From IMG/VR virus record IMGVR_UViG_3300029668_000007: 38,453 nucleotides of DNA; one strand, written 5' to 3'. Below, piece by piece: positions 4,895 to 14,971 of the stretch. This DNA is from a virus. The notes under the pieces were generated by a model. That model was not told where the DNA came from. It did no database searches and saw only the letters and a program-made list of their open reading frames with translations. Every line of letters starts with the position of its first letter. The stretch's first letter is position 1. A program made the translations under genes and the position numbers.

Positions 4895-4924
4895 CCCCCT
4901 GCCACATCGGCAGGGGGAATTTTT
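4895..4924 (+). terminator. Intrinsic terminator closing the cargo cluster
   Basis: CCCCCTGCC-ACATC-GGCAGGGGG is followed by AATTTTT. It overlaps the stop codon of the convergent integrase gene. Confidence 0.75.
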
Positions 4925-6485
4925 ACGCCGCCAGTTGAAATATCGCGCATCCATGATATAATAGGAAAGTCATGCAAGACTCCGTTGCTCTGGTGCAAAG
5001 GTTCGGATTATGCCGGGCTTGGTGTACCACATCCACCAAACCCGAACCAGAAATCTCCTCCCCACGGCCCGCCAGATTGTAGGCCACGAGGACAGAGACC
5101 TTCTGGTTCGGGCTTTGTTGTACCACGATCTTATTCACCAGCATATCGATCACATTTCGCATATAATCCTCATCCTCCAGACATCCATCCGCAAAACAGG
5201 ATAGCCACCGCAGGATATCCACCTCTGTCAGCTCGGGCGCGCCGCGCTGCTCATCGGCCAGCTCGGCGGCGATGCTGGCTTTGCGCCCCTCCAGCTCGTT
5301 GATGCGACCCACCAGCGTGGCGGAGGTCGCGCCCTGCTCCACCATGCGCAGTAGGTTGTCCAGCGACCGCGTCACCTCGTCCAGCTGGCGGCGGAGGGAC
5401 ACGGCGGCGCTGTCGTCCTCGGCCTGACGCTGATATTCAGCTGCGGCGGCGTGGGCCAGTGCCTTGATGTTGTCCGGGCTGAGGAGCGTCCGGGCGTGCT
5501 CCACCACCAGCCGCTCCAAGTCGTCCTTGCGGAGGGTGGGCATCTTGCACCCGAGGCGGCGCTTGCGCCCGCTGCACGCGTAGTAGTAGTACCGCGTCCC
5601 GGAGTGATTGTGGCCGCTCTCCCCCGCCATGGGCTTGCCGCACGCGCCACAGTAGAGCTTCGTGCTCAGGAGGTAGTTGATCGTGGCCTTGGTGCGCCCG
5701 GGGGCCGTCGTGTTTTTTCGGAGCCGCTCCTGTACCCGCCGGAAGGTGCCGGGGTCGACGATGGGCGGGACTTGCCCCACCAGCTCCACCTCGCCATTAT
5801 AATGATAGGTGCCGATGTACTTCCTGTTGGACAGCAACGCGTTAAAGGAGGAGCGGTTGAACGCCTTCCCGGCCCGGGTGCGGTAGCCCTGCGCGTTCAG
5901 CTCGTCCGCGATCCGGGCGAGGCTCATGCCCTCGGCGTAGCGCTCAAAGGCCAGCCGGACGGCGGGCGCGGTGGCCGGGTCGATCTGTAGCCGCTTATCC
6001 ACGGACACATAGCCAAGCGGGATGGTGCCGCCGGTGGACAGGGCCTTGGTGGCGTTCTCGTGCATCCCGCGCGTCACGTCCTGCGCAAGCGATTTGCTAT
6101 AGAACTCGTCCAAACTCTCAAAAATGCCCTCGATCAGCGCGCCCTCCGGGTTGGCGCTGATGGGCTCGCACGCGCTGACCACCTTCACGCCATTCTGCCG
6201 GAGCCGGGCCTTGTAGACGGCGCTGTCGTACCGATTCCGGGCGAAGCGGCTGAACTTGTAGACGATGACCACCTCAAAGCCCCGGCGGCTGCTGTCGCGG
6301 ATCATCCGCTGGAAATCCTCCCGGCGCTCCACGTCCCGGCTGGCGGACAGGGCCCGGTCGGTGTACGTATCCACGACCTCGTAGCCCTCCCGGGCCGCGA
6401 ATTCCTGACAGACCCGGAGCTGCCCCTCGATACTGATCTCCTGCTGCTTCTCGCTGGAGTAGCGGGCGTAGATAACAGCTTTCAT
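4923..6485 (-). CDS. int: Large serine recombinase (integrase), 520 aa
   Basis: It has the N-terminal resolvase motif VIYARYSSEKQ, a recombinase domain, the Cys cluster CGACG...YYACSGRKRRLGC, and a coiled-coil region. Size is typical of large serine integrases. Confidence 0.9.
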   Translation of the reverse strand: MKAVIYARYSSEKQQEISIEGQLRVCQEFAAREGYEVVDTYTDRALSASRDVERREDFQRMIRDSSRRGFEVVIVYKFSRFARNRYDSAVYKARLRQNGVKVVSACEPISANPEGALIEGIFESLDEFYSKSLAQDVTRGMHENATKALSTGGTIPLGYVSVDKRLQIDPATAPAVRLAFERYAEGMSLARIADELNAQGYRTRAGKAFNRSSFNALLSNRKYIGTYHYNGEVELVGQVPPIVDPGTFRRVQERLRKNTTAPGRTKATINYLLSTKLYCGACGKPMAGESGHNHSGTRYYYYACSGRKRRLGCKMPTLRKDDLERLVVEHARTLLSPDNIKALAHAAAAEYQRQAEDDSAAVSLRRQLDEVTRSLDNLLRMVEQGATSATLVGRINELEGRKASIAAELADEQRGAPELTEVDILRWLSCFADGCLEDEDYMRNVIDMLVNKIVVQQSPNQKVSVLVAYNLAGRGEEISGSGLVDVVHQARHNPNLCTRATESCMTFLLYHGCAIFQLAA

Positions 6486-6489
6486 ACGC

Positions 6490-7050
6490 TCACCCTCTGA
6501 CCGGCGAGCCGATCGCCGCGTGGCCGTAGCGGATCAATCCACGATCCCCGCCGGTCACGTCCCAAGCAAACCATAGACAGATGACGACCAAGATCACAAG
6601 CAAGGCCAGCGCCACCACGCGCCAGACGCGCATTTGCTTTACTTCGGCGCGGAGGTGCTGCTCCCGCGCCTCGATCTCCGCGGCGTGGGCCTCTTTCAGG
6701 GTTTCCAGCGTGACGGCGGCGTTCCGTTCCATTACTTCCATTTCACGCCGGTGGGCGGCCTTCATGTCGGGGACGTACTCGCTGCCATAGCTGGGCTCGG
6801 GCTGGGGATCCTCCACTTCCTCCGGCGGAGGATCCAGTGGAATGCCCAGCGCCGAACAGATCGAGAAGACCCGGTCAAAGGCGGGAACCGTCGAAGTATT
6901 CAGGAAGTTGTCGATGGTGCCTTTCGAGTTTATGGTCAGATCAGCCAGTTTTTGGGAGGATATGCCCTGCCGGGCCATTTCCGCCCTGACATGCTCCCGG
7001 AGCGCGTCCATATCATACGGCTGCATAGGATCCTGTTCGATTTTGTCCAT
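6490..7050 (-). CDS. XRE-type HTH protein with a coiled coil and C-terminal TM anchor (186 aa)
   Basis: The HTH reads ISSQKLADLTINSKGTIDNFLN and the C-terminal hydrophobic segment is VVALALLVILVVICLWFAW. The stop lies 4 nt before the int start, so the two form an operon. Confidence 0.75.
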   Translation of the reverse strand: MDKIEQDPMQPYDMDALREHVRAEMARQGISSQKLADLTINSKGTIDNFLNTSTVPAFDRVFSICSALGIPLDPPPEEVEDPQPEPSYGSEYVPDMKAAHRREMEVMERNAAVTLETLKEAHAAEIEAREQHLRAEVKQMRVWRVVALALLVILVVICLWFAWDVTGGDRGLIRYGHAAIGSPVRG

Positions 7051-7227
7051 GTTTCTGTCCTCTTTCCCCTAGAAAAATTTGTCGAACGCTGGCGACCGCC
7101 AGAAAGATGTGATTGCGTCCGGGCATAACGACGTGATACACCAGTATCAGCAACGGCCAGCGCTTGCACTGGCTCCATTATAGGACGGCTCGCCCGAAAA
7201 GACAAGAGGAAAGGACGGAGGAAACAC

Positions 7228-8174: not shown

Positions 8175-8212
8175 GAAGACCCCCGGACACTACGTCCGGG
8201 GGTCTTCTTTTT
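8175..8212. terminator. Bidirectional terminator between the HIRAN gene and the CI-like repressor
   Basis: A 14-bp perfect stem (GAAGACCCCCGGAC / GTCCGGGGGTCTTC) is followed by TTTTT on the + strand. The last repressor codons lie inside the stem. Confidence 0.75.
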
Positions 8213-8558
8213 GCATTTGGCTGTCCAAGTATGCCAGGAATGCTTCCGCCAAGTCCGGCGGCATGTTGACCACGAACCTGACCAGCCGCTTCTTGGCCTC
8301 GCTCTGGCCCTCCATGGTGCGGGTGATGGACTGGATGTCGCTGCTCACCTGCGGGTCGATCATCTCCCCCTCGCCGGTCTCCAGCCACCGGCGGGAGATA
8401 CCGAACTCGGAACAGATGAGTTTCTTTGTCGCTTCGGTCGGTTCCCGCTTTCCGCTCAGCCACATACTGACGGCGGATTGTTGGATTCCGACGCGGTCTG
8501 CGAGCGCCGCCTGTGTGATTCCGGCCATCTGGATAATCGCTTTGATCCGATCTTTCAA
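8190..8558 (-). CDS. CI-like XRE-family repressor (122 aa)
   Basis: TTG start 8558 lies 8 nt after AGGAGG. The HTH reads ITQAALADRVGIQQSAVSMWLSGKR. The gene is divergent from the rightward early operon, with operators between them. Confidence 0.8.
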   Translation of the reverse strand: MKDRIKAIIQMAGITQAALADRVGIQQSAVSMWLSGKREPTEATKKLICSEFGISRRWLETGEGEMIDPQVSSDIQSITRTMEGQSEAKKRLVRFVVNMPPDLAEAFLAYLDSQMQKEDPRT

Positions 8559-8582: not shown

Positions 8583-8611
8583 ATTATATCACAAAATTAT
8601 ATTTTTGTGAA
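8583..8611 (-). promoter_or_regulatory. Leftward repressor-maintenance-type promoter: TTCACA (8611-8606), 17 nt, TATAAT (8588-8583)
   Basis: Read directly on the minus strand. The spacer is filled by the 22-bp palindrome at 8589-8610. Confidence 0.65.
8589..8610. promoter_or_regulatory. Operator: perfect palindrome TCACAAAA-TTATAT-TTTTGTGA
   Basis: The 8-nt arms are exact reverse complements and the site overlaps the leftward promoter. Confidence 0.7.
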
Positions 8612-8619
8612 GTTTTCTC

Positions 8620-8648
8620 TTGACAAATATATTTATGTGAACTATAAT
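8620..8648 (+). promoter_or_regulatory. Rightward early promoter: TTGACA (8620-8625), 17 nt, TATAAT (8643-8648)
   Basis: Both hexamers are consensus with 17-nt spacing, about 30 nt upstream of the RBS of ORF 8680. Confidence 0.8.
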
Positions 8649-8838: not shown

Positions 8839-8863
8839 CGCTGGCGGAGAGAGGGAATAGGAC

Positions 8864-9055
8864 ATGGGAAAAACACGCTATGAGTCCGTAGCCCGGAAGA
8901 TCGTGGATCTGGTGGAAGGAATGACCACCGAGGAATGGCTGAAAATCGCAGCCCTCATCGACGGCTGTATCAAAACACAGATCGCAGAAATGACCATCCA
9001 GAAGCCGGAAAATCTGGAATACCTGCTGGAACAGGCCATGATATCGGACGATTGA
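8864..9055 (+). CDS. Hypothetical early protein (63 aa)
   Basis: ATG is preceded by GAGGGAAUAGGAC. Composition is coding-like. Confidence 0.6.
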   Translation: MGKTRYESVARKIVDLVEGMTTEEWLKIAALIDGCIKTQIAEMTIQKPENLEYLLEQAMISDD

Positions 9056-9242: not shown

Positions 9243-9266
9243 AAACCACCAAGGAGGAAATAGGAC

Positions 9267-10356: not shown

Positions 10357-10619
10357 GCACGATGGCCTTGGACACACAGGCCCGGACGATCCTTGCACAG
10401 GACACCGCCAGAGCCGCCATGAGGGCGATCCAGTCCCCGGCCTATCTGGACGAGTGCGAAGCGTGGGCCCAGAAGTGGTGGGGCCTCCCCTACGCCGTCG
10501 TCCGCCGGAAGACCCCGGAGGAGCTGGAGCCCCAGCTGACGGCGTGGCTCGACACCCTGCGCCGCCCGGAGCCGGTGCTCTGCGGGAACGTGGAGGTCAT
10601 CCCATTTGAGCGGGCGTGA
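10353..10619 (+). CDS. Hypothetical protein (88 aa)
   Basis: GGAGGAG lies upstream, the start is ATGA-coupled, and composition is coding-like. Confidence 0.6.
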   Translation: MSTMALDTQARTILAQDTARAAMRAIQSPAYLDECEAWAQKWWGLPYAVVRRKTPEELEPQLTAWLDTLRRPEPVLCGNVEVIPFERA

Positions 10620-10630
10620 TGCCCGCGCGA

Positions 10631-10694
10631 GGGAAGGTGTTTAGCGTCCGCGGCGCTGAACGGTTCGCTGGGTCGTCCCCAGCCCTTCCCACCA
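10631..10694 (+). ncRNA. tRNA-like element A (64 nt, not a canonical tRNA)
   Basis: A perfect 7-bp acceptor-like helix (GGGAAGG 10631-10637 / CCUUCCC 10684-10690) is followed by unpaired ACCA. Inside are a 9-bp stem with a 7-nt loop (UCCGCGG) and a 5-bp hairpin (CUGGG-UCGUC-CCCAG). Confidence 0.45.
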
Positions 10695-10831
10695 CGGCGC
10701 GTCTGGTCAACGTGCCGGTTGTCAGTCCCTCCTTGCGAGGGGGAAACTCTCCTTCCGTTGTGCGACAAAGCGGAAAGACGCTTGGCGGCCCGGACAGACG
10801 GGCACGTAATGAGGACGCGAAACACCAACAT

Positions 10832-10927
10832 GGGGCTGGGAGTTCATCAGGAAAAGAACGTCGCCGAAATGCGCGCGGCTGTGCTAACGCGGCGAAGGTG
10901 CGGGTTCGACACCCGCCCGCCCCACCA
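10832..10927 (+). ncRNA. tRNA-shaped element B (96 nt) with an expanded anticodon arm
   Basis: The acceptor helix is GGGGCUG/CCGCCCC with one U-C mismatch. The D-like hairpin is GUUC-AUCAGGAAAA-GAAC. A 5-bp stem (UCGCC/GGCGA) closes 25 nt. A 4-nt variable region precedes a canonical T-arm (GCGGG-UUCGACA-CCCGC), then ACCA. Confidence 0.5.
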
Positions 10928-11042
10928 ACCCCGGGGACGGTTTATCCTTCCGGCCTCCGGGACGTGCCTTGGATCAGGCACTGCATCACCTCCTAGGGGC
11001 ATGACCCCGACCCTACCCCTTCACCATCTTTTCGGGGCGGGC

Positions 11043-11100
11043 GGCCCTCTGGCGCACGGCGAACTGGTACGTCACCGGCGCTCTAAGAGGGCCTATTTTA
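11043..11100 (+). terminator. Long imperfect GC hairpin (outer helix GGCCCUCU 11043-11050 / AGAGGGCC 11086-11093) followed by UAUUUUA
   Basis: The outer 8-bp helix and inner helices (GGCGC/GCGCU, CGG/CCG) were read directly. The U-rich tail is short, so this is a probable end of the + strand non-coding transcript. Confidence 0.4.
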
Positions 11101-11105
11101 TGGGC

Positions 11106-11157
11106 AAAAAAAGGCCCCGGCGAAACCGCCGAGGCCCGAACCAAAGGAAATAGGACT
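11106..11157 (-). ncRNA. Predicted ~50-nt sRNA: 5'-AGUCCUAUUUCCUUUGGUUC + terminator hairpin + U7
   Basis: It is bounded by a near-consensus promoter (11163-11191) and an intrinsic terminator (stem 11136-11113 with one mismatch, U7 at 11112-11106). It contains no ORF and lies opposite to all flanking genes. Confidence 0.55.
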
Positions 11158-11162
11158 CTTGT

Positions 11163-11191
11163 ATTATACCACGAAAAAACCGAGAAATCAA
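11163..11191 (-). promoter_or_regulatory. sRNA promoter: TTGATT (11191-11186), 17 nt, extended -10 TGgTATAAT (11171-11163)
   Basis: Read directly on the minus strand. The -10 is perfect, has a TG extension, and the spacer is 17 nt. Confidence 0.6.
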
Positions 11192-11210
11192 ATCAAGGGA
11201 GGAAGGACAA

Positions 11211-11696
11211 ATGGGCATGAACAAAGGGATGTACACAAGTAACAGCTGCGAATGGGAAACGCCGCTTGATTTTTTTAAGGATCTGGATGCGGAGTTCCAC
11301 TTTGACGTGGACGTATGCGCCACGCCGGAAAATGCCAAATGCACCGAATATTACACCAAAGCGGACGACGGACTGCAAAAAACGTGGAGGGGCTCCTGCT
11401 GGATGAACCCGCCATACGGACGCGGAATCGGAAAATGGATGAAAAAGGCATATGAATCCGCCCAAAGCGGTGCGACGGTGGTGTGCCTCGTACCTGCGCG
11501 GACAGATACCGGCTGGTGGCATGACTACGCTATGCGCGGGGAGGTGCGCTTTGTGCGGGGACGGCTTAGATTTAACGGGCTTAATTGCAATGCGCCGTTT
11601 CCCTCGGCGGTGGTGATATTTCGGGGGAGAGCGGATTGGAAAAAGGAGGAAGGACAATGGAACGAAGAAAATGCCGCCGCTGCGGCCATCCCATGA
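11211..11696 (+). CDS. Phage Dam-like N6-adenine DNA methyltransferase (161 aa)
   Basis: The catalytic NPPY lies in CWMNPPYGRG. Small size and layout recall the phage Dam family. GGGAGGAAGGACAA lies upstream. Confidence 0.8.
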   Translation: MGMNKGMYTSNSCEWETPLDFFKDLDAEFHFDVDVCATPENAKCTEYYTKADDGLQKTWRGSCWMNPPYGRGIGKWMKKAYESAQSGATVVCLVPARTDTGWWHDYAMRGEVRFVRGRLRFNGLNCNAPFPSAVVIFRGRADWKKEEGQWNEENAAAAAIP

Positions 11697-12480: not shown

Positions 12481-13497
12481 ATGAACCCATACAGAATCAC
12501 CTCTGCCGCCCTTGTGCTGGCGCTGGCCGCTATCGCCCTGACCGTGTGCGCGGGGCTGGCCGCCGGGCGGAACATGTGGCCGTGGATCGTCGGCTACTGG
12601 GCGGTGCTGACGGCAAAAAATGTTGTGGACTGGATAGGAGGAAAAAAGAATGACCATCAAAGGGCTGCAAAAGCTGATCGGCAAGGATGCCGACAACCTG
12701 ACGCTCATCAACTGCTACGGAGCTGGGGGCATGATCGTCCGCCAGCACCTGAGCGTGTGGGGGCGGGCGATCTACCCCATGGACGGGCTGCCCGTCATGG
12801 ACGAGGAGACGCTGCTGGCGGTGCTGGACGTGCCCCGGGAAAGGTGGAAAAACTGCCACGTGCTGACGGCGGACGCGGACAGCACCCTTCTGACGGCGAT
12901 GATGGAGGACAATCTGGACAGCGACCGCCCGCTGGAGGAGATGGGTATTCAGCTCATCACCGGCGGCGGGGAGTACAAGTTCCTGCTCGACTCGCTGCGG
13001 GGGGAATGCGTTGCCATCCGCCCGGAGTACCTCAAGCCCATCGGCCTGACCAGCGAGCACACGTACTGGCTGCGGGAGACCGGCTGGGACGACAAGACCG
13101 GCGAGGCCAAGCACGTGATCGTTGTCAAGCTAGGGATGCAGAACGTGGCCGCCATCGCCCAGAGCATCGACTGGGGAAGCGACGAGAAGACCGTGGCCCA
13201 GCTGGGCCGGATCTGCGACAAGGCCCGCGCCATCCAGCGGGAGCGGGCGCTGTATGCCGGGGAGGAAAAAGAGGAATGACCATCACCGAGGCCACCCGCC
13301 GAGCCATGGCGGAGGGGAAGAATATCGCCCGGCGCTGGTACGACCGGCGGATCATCATCAAGCCGGAGACCTCGCCGGACTGCTGCCTGATCTGGGTGGA
13401 GGGAAGCAAGCGACCGCCAGCCGTGCGGTGGAACCCGGACGCGGACGACCTGATCTCCGACGCGTGGGAGGTCACGGGTGACTGGTATGAACCGTGA
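12481..13497 (+). CDS. Start of a small 2-TM membrane protein; 3' end unresolved (no in-frame stop before 13497)
   Basis: AAGGAG lies 7 nt upstream. The first ~55 aa (MNPYRITSAALVLALAAIALTVCAGLAAGRNMWPWIVGYWAVLTAK) look genuine. Beyond about 12650 the frame overlaps two better-supported genes and translates to R/G/A-rich junk. Confidence 0.3.
   Translation: MNPYRITSAALVLALAAIALTVCAGLAAGRNMWPWIVGYWAVLTAKNVVDWIGGKKNDHQRAAKADRQGCRQPDAHQLLRSWGHDRPPAPERVGAGDLPHGRAARHGRGDAAGGAGRAPGKVEKLPRADGGRGQHPSDGDDGGQSGQRPPAGGDGYSAHHRRRGVQVPARLAAGGMRCHPPGVPQAHRPDQRAHVLAAGDRLGRQDRRGQARDRCQARDAERGRHRPEHRLGKRREDRGPAGPDLRQGPRHPAGAGAVCRGGKRGMTITEATRRAMAEGKNIARRWYDRRIIIKPETSPDCCLIWVEGSKRPPAVRWNPDADDLISDAWEVTGDWYEP
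12650..13279 (+). CDS. Hypothetical protein (209 aa)
   Basis: GGAGG lies 8 nt upstream and there is a stop in this frame at 12635. Composition is balanced and coding-like. Confidence 0.7.
   Translation: MTIKGLQKLIGKDADNLTLINCYGAGGMIVRQHLSVWGRAIYPMDGLPVMDEETLLAVLDVPRERWKNCHVLTADADSTLLTAMMEDNLDSDRPLEEMGIQLITGGGEYKFLLDSLRGECVAIRPEYLKPIGLTSEHTYWLRETGWDDKTGEAKHVIVVKLGMQNVAAIAQSIDWGSDEKTVAQLGRICDKARAIQRERALYAGEEKEE
13276..13497 (+). CDS. DUF2829 / Tad2-like small protein (73 aa)
   Basis: The N-terminal ITEATRRAMAEGKNIARRWY and C-terminal RWNPDADDLISDAWEV match the recalled DUF2829 pattern (eAl.al.eGkk.aRkgW ... W.p...Dl.aeDWev). The start is ATGA-coupled. Confidence 0.6.
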   Translation: MTITEATRRAMAEGKNIARRWYDRRIIIKPETSPDCCLIWVEGSKRPPAVRWNPDADDLISDAWEVTGDWYEP

Positions 13498-13855: not shown

Positions 13856-13906
13856 ACTCGCCCTTGGCCATCCCGATAAGAGCCAAGAAGGGAATAGGAC
13901 AAGACC

Positions 13907-14971
13907 ATGGGCTATTACGAGAAACGGATCCAGTCGGGGCCGTATCTGGAGGTGTACCGCTACCATGCCCTGCGGTCGCCGGGGAAACAGACCCCAAGGG
14001 GCCCGGTGGAGCGGGACACCACCGAGTATCAGGAGGAACTGAACTCAGTCGCCGCGTGGAAAAAGCTCTTTCGGCTGGAACTGTGTAATTTCAGCCGGGC
14101 GGCGGGAGACCTCTTTGTGACCGTCACCCACCGGGAGCGGATCACCGAGGCGGACGCGCTCCGGGAGGAGCGGAACCTGATCGCCCGGCTCAAGCGGCTC
14201 AGAAAGAAGCTGGGCCTGCCCGAACTGAAATACATTGCCGTGACGGAGGAACAGGGCCGCTGGCACACCCACCTCATCCTCAACGGCGGCCTGACGCTGA
14301 AACAGCTGGTCAAGGTCTGGGGCGACCGGGGCCGGGTGGCGGTCTCCACACTGGAAGACCAGAACAACTACCGGGAGCTGGCCCGTTACCTGACGACAGA
14401 CCACAAGGAGTGCCGCCGGAAGACGGACGAGCACGGCGACCCGGCCATCAAGACCCCGCGGAGGAAATATCAGCGACGCTGGCATGCCAGCCGAAATCTG
14501 GCCCGGCCTGTGGAGAAGGTCAAGCCCGCGCCAAAGCCCCGTCTGGGCGAACCAAAACCGCCCAAGGGCTACCGGCTCCTGCCGGACTGGCGCTTCGGGG
14601 TGGACGTGCTGGGATATTACTACGTGGACTACGCCTGTATGGCGGAGAAATGGGAGCCGAAACCGCCGAAGGGAGGAAAACGGAATGCCAAAAAATCAAA
14701 GGGAAGCCATCCCCGAGCCGACAAAGAGGGTGAGCGAAGCGAACCGAGGCCGAGGACAGCCGGAACGGATCCCGCAGGCCGAAGCTCGCGACCTTCTGGG
14801 CCGCGAGCCGACAGAAAGCGTGGAACAACAGCGGCTCTTCCAGTGGGCGCGGATGGCGGCGGGAGCGCACCCGGAGCTGGGGCTGCTCTACCACATCCCC
14901 AACGAGGGGAAGCGGAGCGTCAAGACCGGGGCCAGAATGAAGGCCGAGGGCCTGAAAAAGGGCGTGCCTGA
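13907..14971 (+). CDS. HUH-type rolling-circle replication initiator (Rep); functional C-terminus uncertain
   Basis: The HUH-like motif is GRWHTHLILNG and the N-terminal ~260 aa look coding. The last ~95 aa are P/R/G-rich and overlap VRR-NUC in another frame. There is no earlier in-frame stop. Confidence 0.6.
   Translation: MGYYEKRIQSGPYLEVYRYHALRSPGKQTPRGPVERDTTEYQEELNSVAAWKKLFRLELCNFSRAAGDLFVTVTHRERITEADALREERNLIARLKRLRKKLGLPELKYIAVTEEQGRWHTHLILNGGLTLKQLVKVWGDRGRVAVSTLEDQNNYRELARYLTTDHKECRRKTDEHGDPAIKTPRRKYQRRWHASRNLARPVEKVKPAPKPRLGEPKPPKGYRLLPDWRFGVDVLGYYYVDYACMAEKWEPKPPKGGKRNAKKSKGSHPRADKEGERSEPRPRTAGTDPAGRSSRPSGPRADRKRGTTAALPVGADGGGSAPGAGAALPHPQRGEAERQDRGQNEGRGPEKGRA

Follow-up and report, generated by a model that had tools for sequence, protein, structure and literature searches.

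A predicted small RNA encoded opposite the early operon of a temperate gut phage, and its possible role as a countertranscript

The c4 RNA of phages P1 and P7 blocks translation by covering the ribosome-binding site of an early/immunity gene. To our knowledge, the phage small RNAs characterised so far come nearly all from Proteobacteria. Lambda OOP is a short, terminator-ended RNA that has its own promoter, pO, and is antisense to the early transcript (PMC12197685). The sar RNA of P22 (68/69 nt) is a phage antisense RNA that covers a ribosome-binding site and blocks translation, and the 53-nt prophage RNA DicF prevents translation of ftsZ (PMC12197685). Here we analyse a predicted 52-nt small RNA on the minus strand (11106-11157) of virus record IMGVR_UViG_3300029668_000007, whose whole length of 38,453 nucleotides is referred to below as the window. 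The window represents a temperate siphovirus-like genome, and the contigs of its relatives derive from human gut metagenomes. The predicted RNA is probably a countertranscript of the lambda OOP, P22 sar or plasmid countertranscript RNA (ctRNA) kind that acts locally. That local or cis action would be its main role is a tentative proposal, to which we assign a probability of roughly 0.4.

Like OOP (77 nt), the predicted RNA is directed against a temperate phage's rightward early operon and lies a few kb away from PR. OOP, however, is complementary to the 3' end of the coding gene cII and leads to cleavage by RNase III, whereas the predicted RNA lies opposite non-coding leader sequence alone, upstream of the next gene. 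The two are unrelated in sequence and by Rfam, and instead of E. coli the host is a gut bacterium of Firmicutes type. The difference from sar concerns position: sar is antisense to the ant ribosome-binding site, whereas the 5' end of the predicted RNA falls 35 nt short of the adjacent site, to which its complementarity is only imperfect. In c4, which arises by processing of a sense precursor, the specificity nucleotides covary with the targets; for the predicted RNA no covariation was found. In size (approximately 50 nt) and in its free 5' tail, terminator hairpin and U-tract the predicted RNA is like the ctRNAs of rolling-circle and theta plasmids, for example RNAII of pMV158/pLS1. These target the initiation region of Rep, and the best predicted trans site in the window also belongs to a HUH Rep gene; ctRNAs are, however, encoded opposite the rep leader, whereas Rep lies 2.7 kb away here. 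An unpaired pyrimidine-rich segment facing purine-rich Shine-Dalgarno (SD) regions is shared with the trans-acting RNAs of the RsaE/RoxS type in Firmicutes and with DicF, which is also trans-acting. The seeds of those RNAs are their most conserved part, whereas the seed centre of the predicted RNA is its most variable part.

Rfam 15 gave no match at gathering thresholds over the whole window. In E-value mode on 10550-11260 the best matches over the RNA reach 14-20 bits, against gathering thresholds of 41-80; ctRNA_p42d scores 15.5 bits with a gathering score of 50. As judged from its sequence, the predicted RNA is outside every described Rfam family, yet of a familiar phage-regulator type.

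Anatomy and conservation of the predicted unit

The preliminary description of this DNA reported an isolated minus-strand promoter followed by an intrinsic terminator, and all of the elements it listed are found where it placed them. The -35 hexamer TTGATT (11186-11191) and the extended -10 TGgTATAAT (11163-11171) are separated by a 17-nt spacer, which gives a score of 10/12 plus the TG extension in a consensus scan. The transcription start site (TSS) is predicted at A11157 or G11156, 6-7 nt past the -10. The predicted RNA folds into a free 5' tail and a hairpin with a minimum free energy of -24.2 kcal/mol (z = -2.7). The tail is CU-rich and single-stranded (AGUCCUAUUUCCUUUGGUUC, 11138-11157), with 15-20 nt free. 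The terminator hairpin (11113-11136) begins 30 nt beyond the extended -10 and consists of a 10-bp GC-rich stem (11136-11127 / 11122-11113) with a GUUU loop (11126-11123). A U7 tract follows at 11106-11112, and all variants have U5-U8 at this place. The hairpin is a minus-strand structure, because the plus strand has no U-run after it and the stem pair 11132/11117, which is U-G on the minus strand, becomes a C-A mismatch when read from the plus strand. Its use as a plus-strand terminator is ruled out by the missing U-tract. In the whole window this is the only promoter (at least 10/12) with a strong terminator within 150 nt, and 100 dinucleotide shuffles yield no such pair.

Relatives were collected through several searches. 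A search of viral contigs with the Dam protein gave 4 close contigs, and one with the neighbouring 88-aa protein gave 9, all of which carry the unit; a 20-mer over the -10 retrieved the same 9. A pattern search with block X, a structured block to the left of the unit, returned those 9 and in addition L099-L101, and a promoter-anchored pattern run against metagenomes added 12 further copies. The total set comprises 22 sequences (the window and 21 contigs) with 17 distinct RNA variants. Variable positions were counted in the 10 contigs found via the 88-aa protein, which are hence unbiased for the motif.

Within these 10 contigs, variation is distributed unevenly. Not a single position varies in the terminator stem (0/20), in the stretch from the TSS to the extended -10 (0/14), in the -35 hexamer (0/6) or in the 16 nt between the -35 and the GGAC of the next ribosome-binding site (0/16). 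The third-codon sites of the neighbouring 88-aa gene, used as neutral proxy, are variable in 21 of 89 cases (24%), compared to 5/14 in the promoter spacer 11172-11185, 1/4 in the hairpin loop and 4-5/21 in the 5' tail. At a neutral proxy of 24%, we calculate a probability of approximately 0.005 for no change in 20 positions, a value that is approximate because sites are linked. Nucleotide diversity amounts to 0.137 for the spacer, 0.054 for the transcribed region and 0.056 for third-codon sites. Outside the 10-contig set, one disruptive stem change is seen in L102. With the -35, the extended -10, the TSS-proximal bases and 20 stem positions invariant, the discrete minus-strand unit proposed earlier is likely real, and we consider it likely that a discrete transcript is indeed made from it.

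The seed, on which the earlier proposal depended, is not conserved in the same manner. The ends of the tail (GUCCUA and UGGUUC) are invariant, but its anti-SD centre varies at about the neutral rate, with UAUUUCCU, UAGUUCCU, UAAUUCCU, UACUUCCU, UAUUUUCU, UAUUUCCCAU and UAUUCCCCA as variants. At position 11150 all four nucleotides (A, C, G and T) are present among the 10 close contigs, the neighbouring positions being invariant; among 1320 columns of adjacent coding DNA in the same contigs, none is tetra-allelic. Read from sequence, this is the pattern of a promoter and a terminator under selection, unlike that of a multi-target seed.

The same variants bear on whether the locus might encode a small protein or a type I toxin-antitoxin pair. 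Two candidate open reading frames (ORFs) are present in the window, a minus-strand ORF of 41 aa (11218-11093) and a plus-strand TTG ORF from 11159, and six variable sites in one codon phase had suggested the former. This minus-strand ORF, however, is stopped by TAG or TAA at 11150 in L081, L089 and L085. The plus-strand ORF acquires a TGA in L104, its frame relative to the next gene differs between cassette contexts and its changes are mostly non-synonymous; its peptide is hydrophilic and truncated in L104, which does not fit a type I toxin-antitoxin pair. With both candidates interrupted in relatives, no conserved ORF runs across the unit, and the coding alternative is effectively refuted by these stop codons.

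The unit is placed opposite to and within the early operon downstream of PR, with plus-strand genes on either side. A PR-like promoter of perfect consensus (8620-8648) adjoins the gene for a CI-like repressor (8190-8558, minus strand), divergent consensus promoters span 8583-8648 and a large serine recombinase is encoded at 4923-6485 (minus strand). The rightward early operon includes a weak helix-turn-helix (HTH) gene (9267), the Dam methylase (11211-11696), a DUF551 protein, a recombination directionality factor (RDF), the HUH/G2P-type Rep (13907-14971, plus strand) and ParB-like proteins, after which the terminase and structural genes follow.

A separable cassette at probable exchange junctions

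The conserved segment has the form of a cassette of approximately 103 bp (11106-11208), which extends from the U-tract at its left edge through the GGAC just ahead of the ATG of the next gene. To its right stands either Dam or a 75-aa zinc-ribbon ORF (MERRKC..., ATG 11657 in the window). To its left most contigs have block X followed by TTTTATGGG; L082 and L103 have block X with a 45-nt insert and L108 has different DNA. In L099-L101 block X is retained yet the whole small-RNA cassette is missing. With its differing flanks the cassette behaves as a separable unit, and its edges match the predicted transcript ends plus the adjacent ribosome-binding site. It includes the translation-initiation region of the next gene (AUCAAGGGAGGAAGGAC, 11192-11208, plus strand), which is invariant whichever gene follows.

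A covariance model of the 17 RNA variants detected no second copy in the window, in 76 loci of other Dam-carrying phages or in L099-L101; its only other match is weak and antisense to the HTH site. In a search for host or prophage copies, the 20-mer over the -10 had no match in 185,579 species genomes, an integrase search to the same end gave merely relatives at 25-29% identity, and the cassette is unmatched among GenBank phages.

Several repeats point to the exchange of genes at initiation regions. The sequence GGAGGAAGGACAA is found at 11198-11210 and, in a second copy, at 11645-11657 (plus strand), ahead of the zinc-ribbon ORF; together the copies bracket the insertion of the Dam gene. Dam is missing from about half of the relatives, and these have one copy of GGAGGAAGGACAA. 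Two small genes are bracketed by the motif copies at 8853-8863 and 9255-9266; they are missing from L003 and L086, where a single motif copy is found at the junction. This suggests that gene cassettes are gained and lost by recombination at ribosome-binding-site motifs, and part of the recurrence of the motif would therefore stem from cassette exchange at repeated initiation-region motifs or from shared ancestry.

These repeats also lend themselves to a reading without any regulatory RNA, in which cassette exchange left the plus-strand look-alike at 11141-11156 behind as a fossil and the promoter and terminator are incidental, or in which the terminator insulates a neighbouring tRNA-like array from stray antisense transcription. 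Both indels are bracketed by direct initiation-region repeats (8853/9255 and 11198/11645), and the tail region resembles the HTH site even past the seed (ACCAA..AGGAAATAGGAC), which fits common descent. Moreover, the diversity of the transcribed region equals that of third-codon sites (0.054 against 0.056), and chance adjacency of a promoter and a terminator is not rare: by our own estimate, the 12 promoters and 19 terminators of the window, if placed at random, would give approximately 0.4 such pairs, so the adjacency alone is no more than suggestive. Such a fossil, however, would not explain why invariance is concentrated in the -35, the extended -10 and the stem whereas the spacer exceeds neutral variation, why the edges of the cassette match the predicted transcript ends, or why the U-tract is kept in every variant despite a changing flank. 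A perfect extended -10 at 17-nt spacing is, moreover, a strong promoter in Firmicutes. Overall, we regard this explanation as rather unlikely.

Pairing partners and the mode of action

In a genome scan with the tail alone, the strongest predicted partner is a site that the preliminary description did not consider: the perfectly complementary early-operon transcript (11106-11157, plus strand), which contains the ribosome-binding-site look-alike CCAAAGGAAAUAGGAC, behind which no conserved ORF is found, and reaches -32.6 kcal/mol. This cis RNA should be available, because the cassette contains no plus-strand promoter in the consensus scan and the downstream genes would thus be read from PR through the locus. 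The adjacent initiation region (11192-11208) pairs with the tail at 16 of 17 positions, four of them G-U, with one mismatch (-22.0 kcal/mol); in relatives the energy of this site ranges from -19 to -24.3 kcal/mol. The variable seed centre, including position 11150, is tolerable for a cis-antisense RNA because complementarity is kept automatically.

What the analysis shows is how the unit is built and conserved, where the cassette begins and ends and which pairing energies are predicted; the production of the RNA, its ends, its targets and its mode of action are inferred from there. A constitutive-looking promoter of the sigma-A type would fire against the early operon, and the RNA would end 52 nt further on at the strong intrinsic terminator. 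The promoter may be constitutive because the CI-operator-like palindromes of the PR/PRM region (TCACAAAA..TTTTGTGA) are missing from it; in lytic growth it is possibly occluded by read-through from PR. As the cassette of approximately 103 bp, the RNA gene would be inherited jointly with the next gene's ribosome-binding site. The unpaired CU-rich tail would pair with the perfectly complementary early-operon mRNA, in a duplex ending approximately 35 nt upstream of the next SD, and could also pair imperfectly with the SD region of the next gene. Pairing would lower expression downstream, that is, of Dam or the zinc-ribbon gene and then of RDF and Rep, possibly through blocked ribosome loading or duplex-directed cleavage. 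Convergent transcription may contribute interference, and cross-pairing with the similar initiation regions of HTH and Rep is a possible secondary effect.

A number of points weigh against this local countertranscript. The RNA overlaps only the non-coding leader and the next SD starts approximately 35 nt past its 5' end; because the cis duplex would thus form upstream of the SD and not on it, it is not obvious that translation would be affected. Part of early transcription might already stop just upstream, at 11042-11100, where a plus-strand hairpin precedes UAUUUUAU; less of the cis target would then be left. All relatives are close (approximately 94% identity over the RNA), the stem has no compensatory change and the conservation p-values depend on few substitutions. 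The -10 was included in two of the search patterns, so that solely the protein-anchored set of 10 contigs is unbiased, and the approximately 0.4 promoter-terminator pairs expected by random placement count here as well.

The preliminary description proposed another mode of action, in which the 5' tail is a trans-acting anti-SD riboregulator that occludes the initiation regions of HTH (9267), the gene at 8864, Rep (13907) and the cassettes P1 and P2; in our analysis Dam and the genes at 7050 and 7512 would be added. All complementarities that it listed are present as described. The HTH initiation region (9248-9266, plus strand; ATG 9267) shows 12 perfect base pairs at 9255-9266, then a 2-nt bulge and a 5-bp extension (-24.6 kcal/mol), and the HUH Rep region (13880-13900, plus strand; ATG 13907) is the best trans site at -27.1 kcal/mol. 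For the gene at 8864, the candidate target 8853-8863 (plus strand), which is also the left direct repeat of the two-gene insertion, reaches -21.5 kcal/mol. The candidate targets in the leaders of P1 (1187, minus strand; site 1189-1200) and P2 (2081, minus strand; site 2083-2094) reach -22.7 and -22.6 kcal/mol, followed by the initiation regions of Dam (11211; -22.0 kcal/mol) and of the gene at 7050 (minus strand; -20.0 kcal/mol). The sites at 8853-8863 and 13890-13900 read GGGAATAGGAC, and both leader sites read GGGAGATAGGAC.

Whether these energies are exceptional depends on the control. When the 20-nt tail was scanned against 54 curated translation-initiation regions with a threshold of -20 kcal/mol or lower, 7 of the 54 were retained. 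Shuffled seeds gave 0.4 sites and shuffles that keep the UUCCUU core gave 0.7; none of 1000 shuffles reached 7. The eight best sites all belong to early or lysogeny genes (8/29, against 0/25 elsewhere; Fisher p = 0.005) and none to late genes. As a stricter control we used reverse complements of positions -20 to -1 of real initiation regions, which hit 5.7 other regions on average, with 37% reaching at least 7. Because this control scores alike, the finding reduces to a resemblance between the plus strand at 11138-11156 and the ribosome-binding-site family of the early genes, RCCAARGG...GGAC with the start codon 0-6 nt later. The energies thus surpass those of shuffles, but ordinary initiation regions do about as well.

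The heptamer ATAGGAC shows a similar duality. Its count is raised (7 observed against 2.3 expected, with 1 of 100 shuffles getting to 7), in agreement with the preliminary description, which had singled out the AUAGGAC extension as the part that stands out. This special status is not upheld by the reverse-complement control, and the context is not kept in relatives either: the HTH and Rep sites of several of them lack ATAGGAC and read GCCAAAGGGGGACAAGGAC and GAACCAAAGGGGAAGAAAGGGAC. Furthermore, P1 and P2 have an identical 52-nt leader, each behind its own strong promoter, and constitute one duplicated leader rather than two separate sites.

In P1 (1185-1290, minus strand) and P2 (2079-2185, minus strand) the promoters are near-consensus (TTGACT, 17-nt spacer, TATAAT), and the leaders carry a GC-rich hairpin ahead of the GGGAGATAGGAC site, which gives them a moron-like look. 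Another minus-strand promoter-like site (TTGTCT, 17-nt spacer, TATAAT) lies at 7177-7205 and overlaps the sole ATAGGAC copy away from gene starts (7180-7186, plus strand).

Comparison among relatives also bears on the trans regulon. The sites of HTH, Rep and the adjacent gene stay top-ranked for the own RNA of each genome (-19 to -25 kcal/mol), and those of HTH and Rep do so at -20 to -25 kcal/mol even where they differ in sequence. This persistent ranking fits conserved targeting through two short anchors and family resemblance equally well. The cassette-less contigs L099-L101 have no site below -20.3 kcal/mol, but the absence of the cassette is confounded with phylogenetic distance. A free CU-rich 5' tail followed by a terminator matches the SD-targeting small RNAs of Firmicutes. 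On the other hand, the variants of the seed (RNA position 8 being U, G, A or C, and two larger variants) do not track the target variants: genomes with G, A or C at this position still keep the A in their ATAGGAC sites, and seed and target variants assort independently. Together with the near-neutral seed centre, the duplication of P1/P2, the indels flanked by motif copies and the performance of ordinary initiation regions, this makes a trans-acting regulon, though possible, appear rather unlikely as the main role of the RNA. What stands of the proposal is that the complementarity of the tail exceeds that of shuffles and is confined to early and lysogeny genes; no covariation of seed and targets was found.

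A further reading treats the 103-bp unit as portable. It would be a regulatory cassette made up of a small antisense RNA gene and the ribosome-binding site under its control, placed at swap junctions and imposing RNA control on the following gene, with the hypervariable tail nucleotide setting the pairing specificity among co-resident or superinfecting relatives, and the tail might in addition damp HTH and Rep. In this the nucleotide would be comparable to the specificity nucleotides known from P1/P7 c4 and from plasmid copy-control RNAs. We consider this extended role quite doubtful.

Surrounding region and significance

The small-RNA gene occupies the right end of a non-coding stretch of approximately 590 nt (10620-11210), in which the GC content is flat across codon positions. 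On its plus strand this stretch holds tRNA-like units ending in CCACCA, the widely conserved element S1 and the structured block X (10985-11094). The type A unit (10833-10927, plus strand) scores 35.6 bits with the Rfam tRNA model and has 25 nt in place of the 7-nt anticodon loop; a compensatory change (GCC/GGC to GUC/GAC) is seen in its anticodon-position stem in L094. The type B unit (10622-10697, plus strand) looks D-armless and combines the acceptor GGGAAGG/CCTTCCC and a T-arm with a 7-bp hairpin whose loop is UCCGCGG. The units of the array end in CCACCA yet cannot decode, and none is called by ARAGORN. Types A, B, C and D interchange at the same place among close relatives (L081-L089). 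A permuted transfer-messenger RNA at 10900-11040 was considered and rejected: the Rfam match is weak (19.3 bits, E = 0.09) and the acceptor pairing has no covariation in relatives.

An element core, AAGCGGAAAGACGCTTGnCnGCCCGGACAGACGGGC, at 10767-10802 (plus strand; also L118-L140) folds into two 5-bp hairpins, whose loops are GAAAGA and GACAGA, and has a boxB-like look. It is found exactly in 30 viral contigs, 20 of which are unrelated phages with wholly different flanks, and also in GenBank prophage record BK070131.1; no Rfam family covers it, and it may be an RNA signal, a site bound by protein or the core of an attachment site. Block X carries AUCACCUCCU at 10986-10995, which resembles the 3' tail of 16S rRNA. 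At the end of the block a long hairpin (GGCCCUCU...AGAGGGCC) and, after it, UAUUUUAU stand back to back with the minus-strand terminator. Another hairpin, immediately 5' of the terminal one, shows covariation between relatives and contains a plus-strand U-G pair. Further downstream, a 338-aa ORF (12481-13497, plus strand) has an atypical GC content by codon position (0.78/0.60/0.56), its Tad2-like domain is confined to the final 70 residues, and a 209-aa ORF in another frame (12650-13279, plus strand; GC3 0.90) overlaps it. The gene model at 12481-13497 may be wrong, or a frameshift may be present.

This long structured non-coding region around the RNA also raises the idea that the transcript, or its transcription, serves replication, as a primer or by transcriptional activation of a HUH-Rep replicon. 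A primer or activation role was once proposed for lambda oop/pO, and primers made by RNA polymerase are used at the single-strand origins of rolling-circle replicons. The phage encodes a HUH/G2P-type initiator, and an RNA of minus polarity would arise on the displaced plus strand. An RNA that is released at an intrinsic terminator is no primer, however; no origin features were identified at the locus, Rep is 2.7 kb off and related phages without the cassette keep the remaining non-coding region. A role in replication is therefore very improbable.

If validated, the local countertranscript would extend this type of control to an under-studied group, the temperate phages of gut Firmicutes, and would provide a handle on the timing with which methylase, excision factor and replication genes are expressed. 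An RNA gene that moves as one block with its target site would exemplify how regulatory RNA modules spread by recombination.

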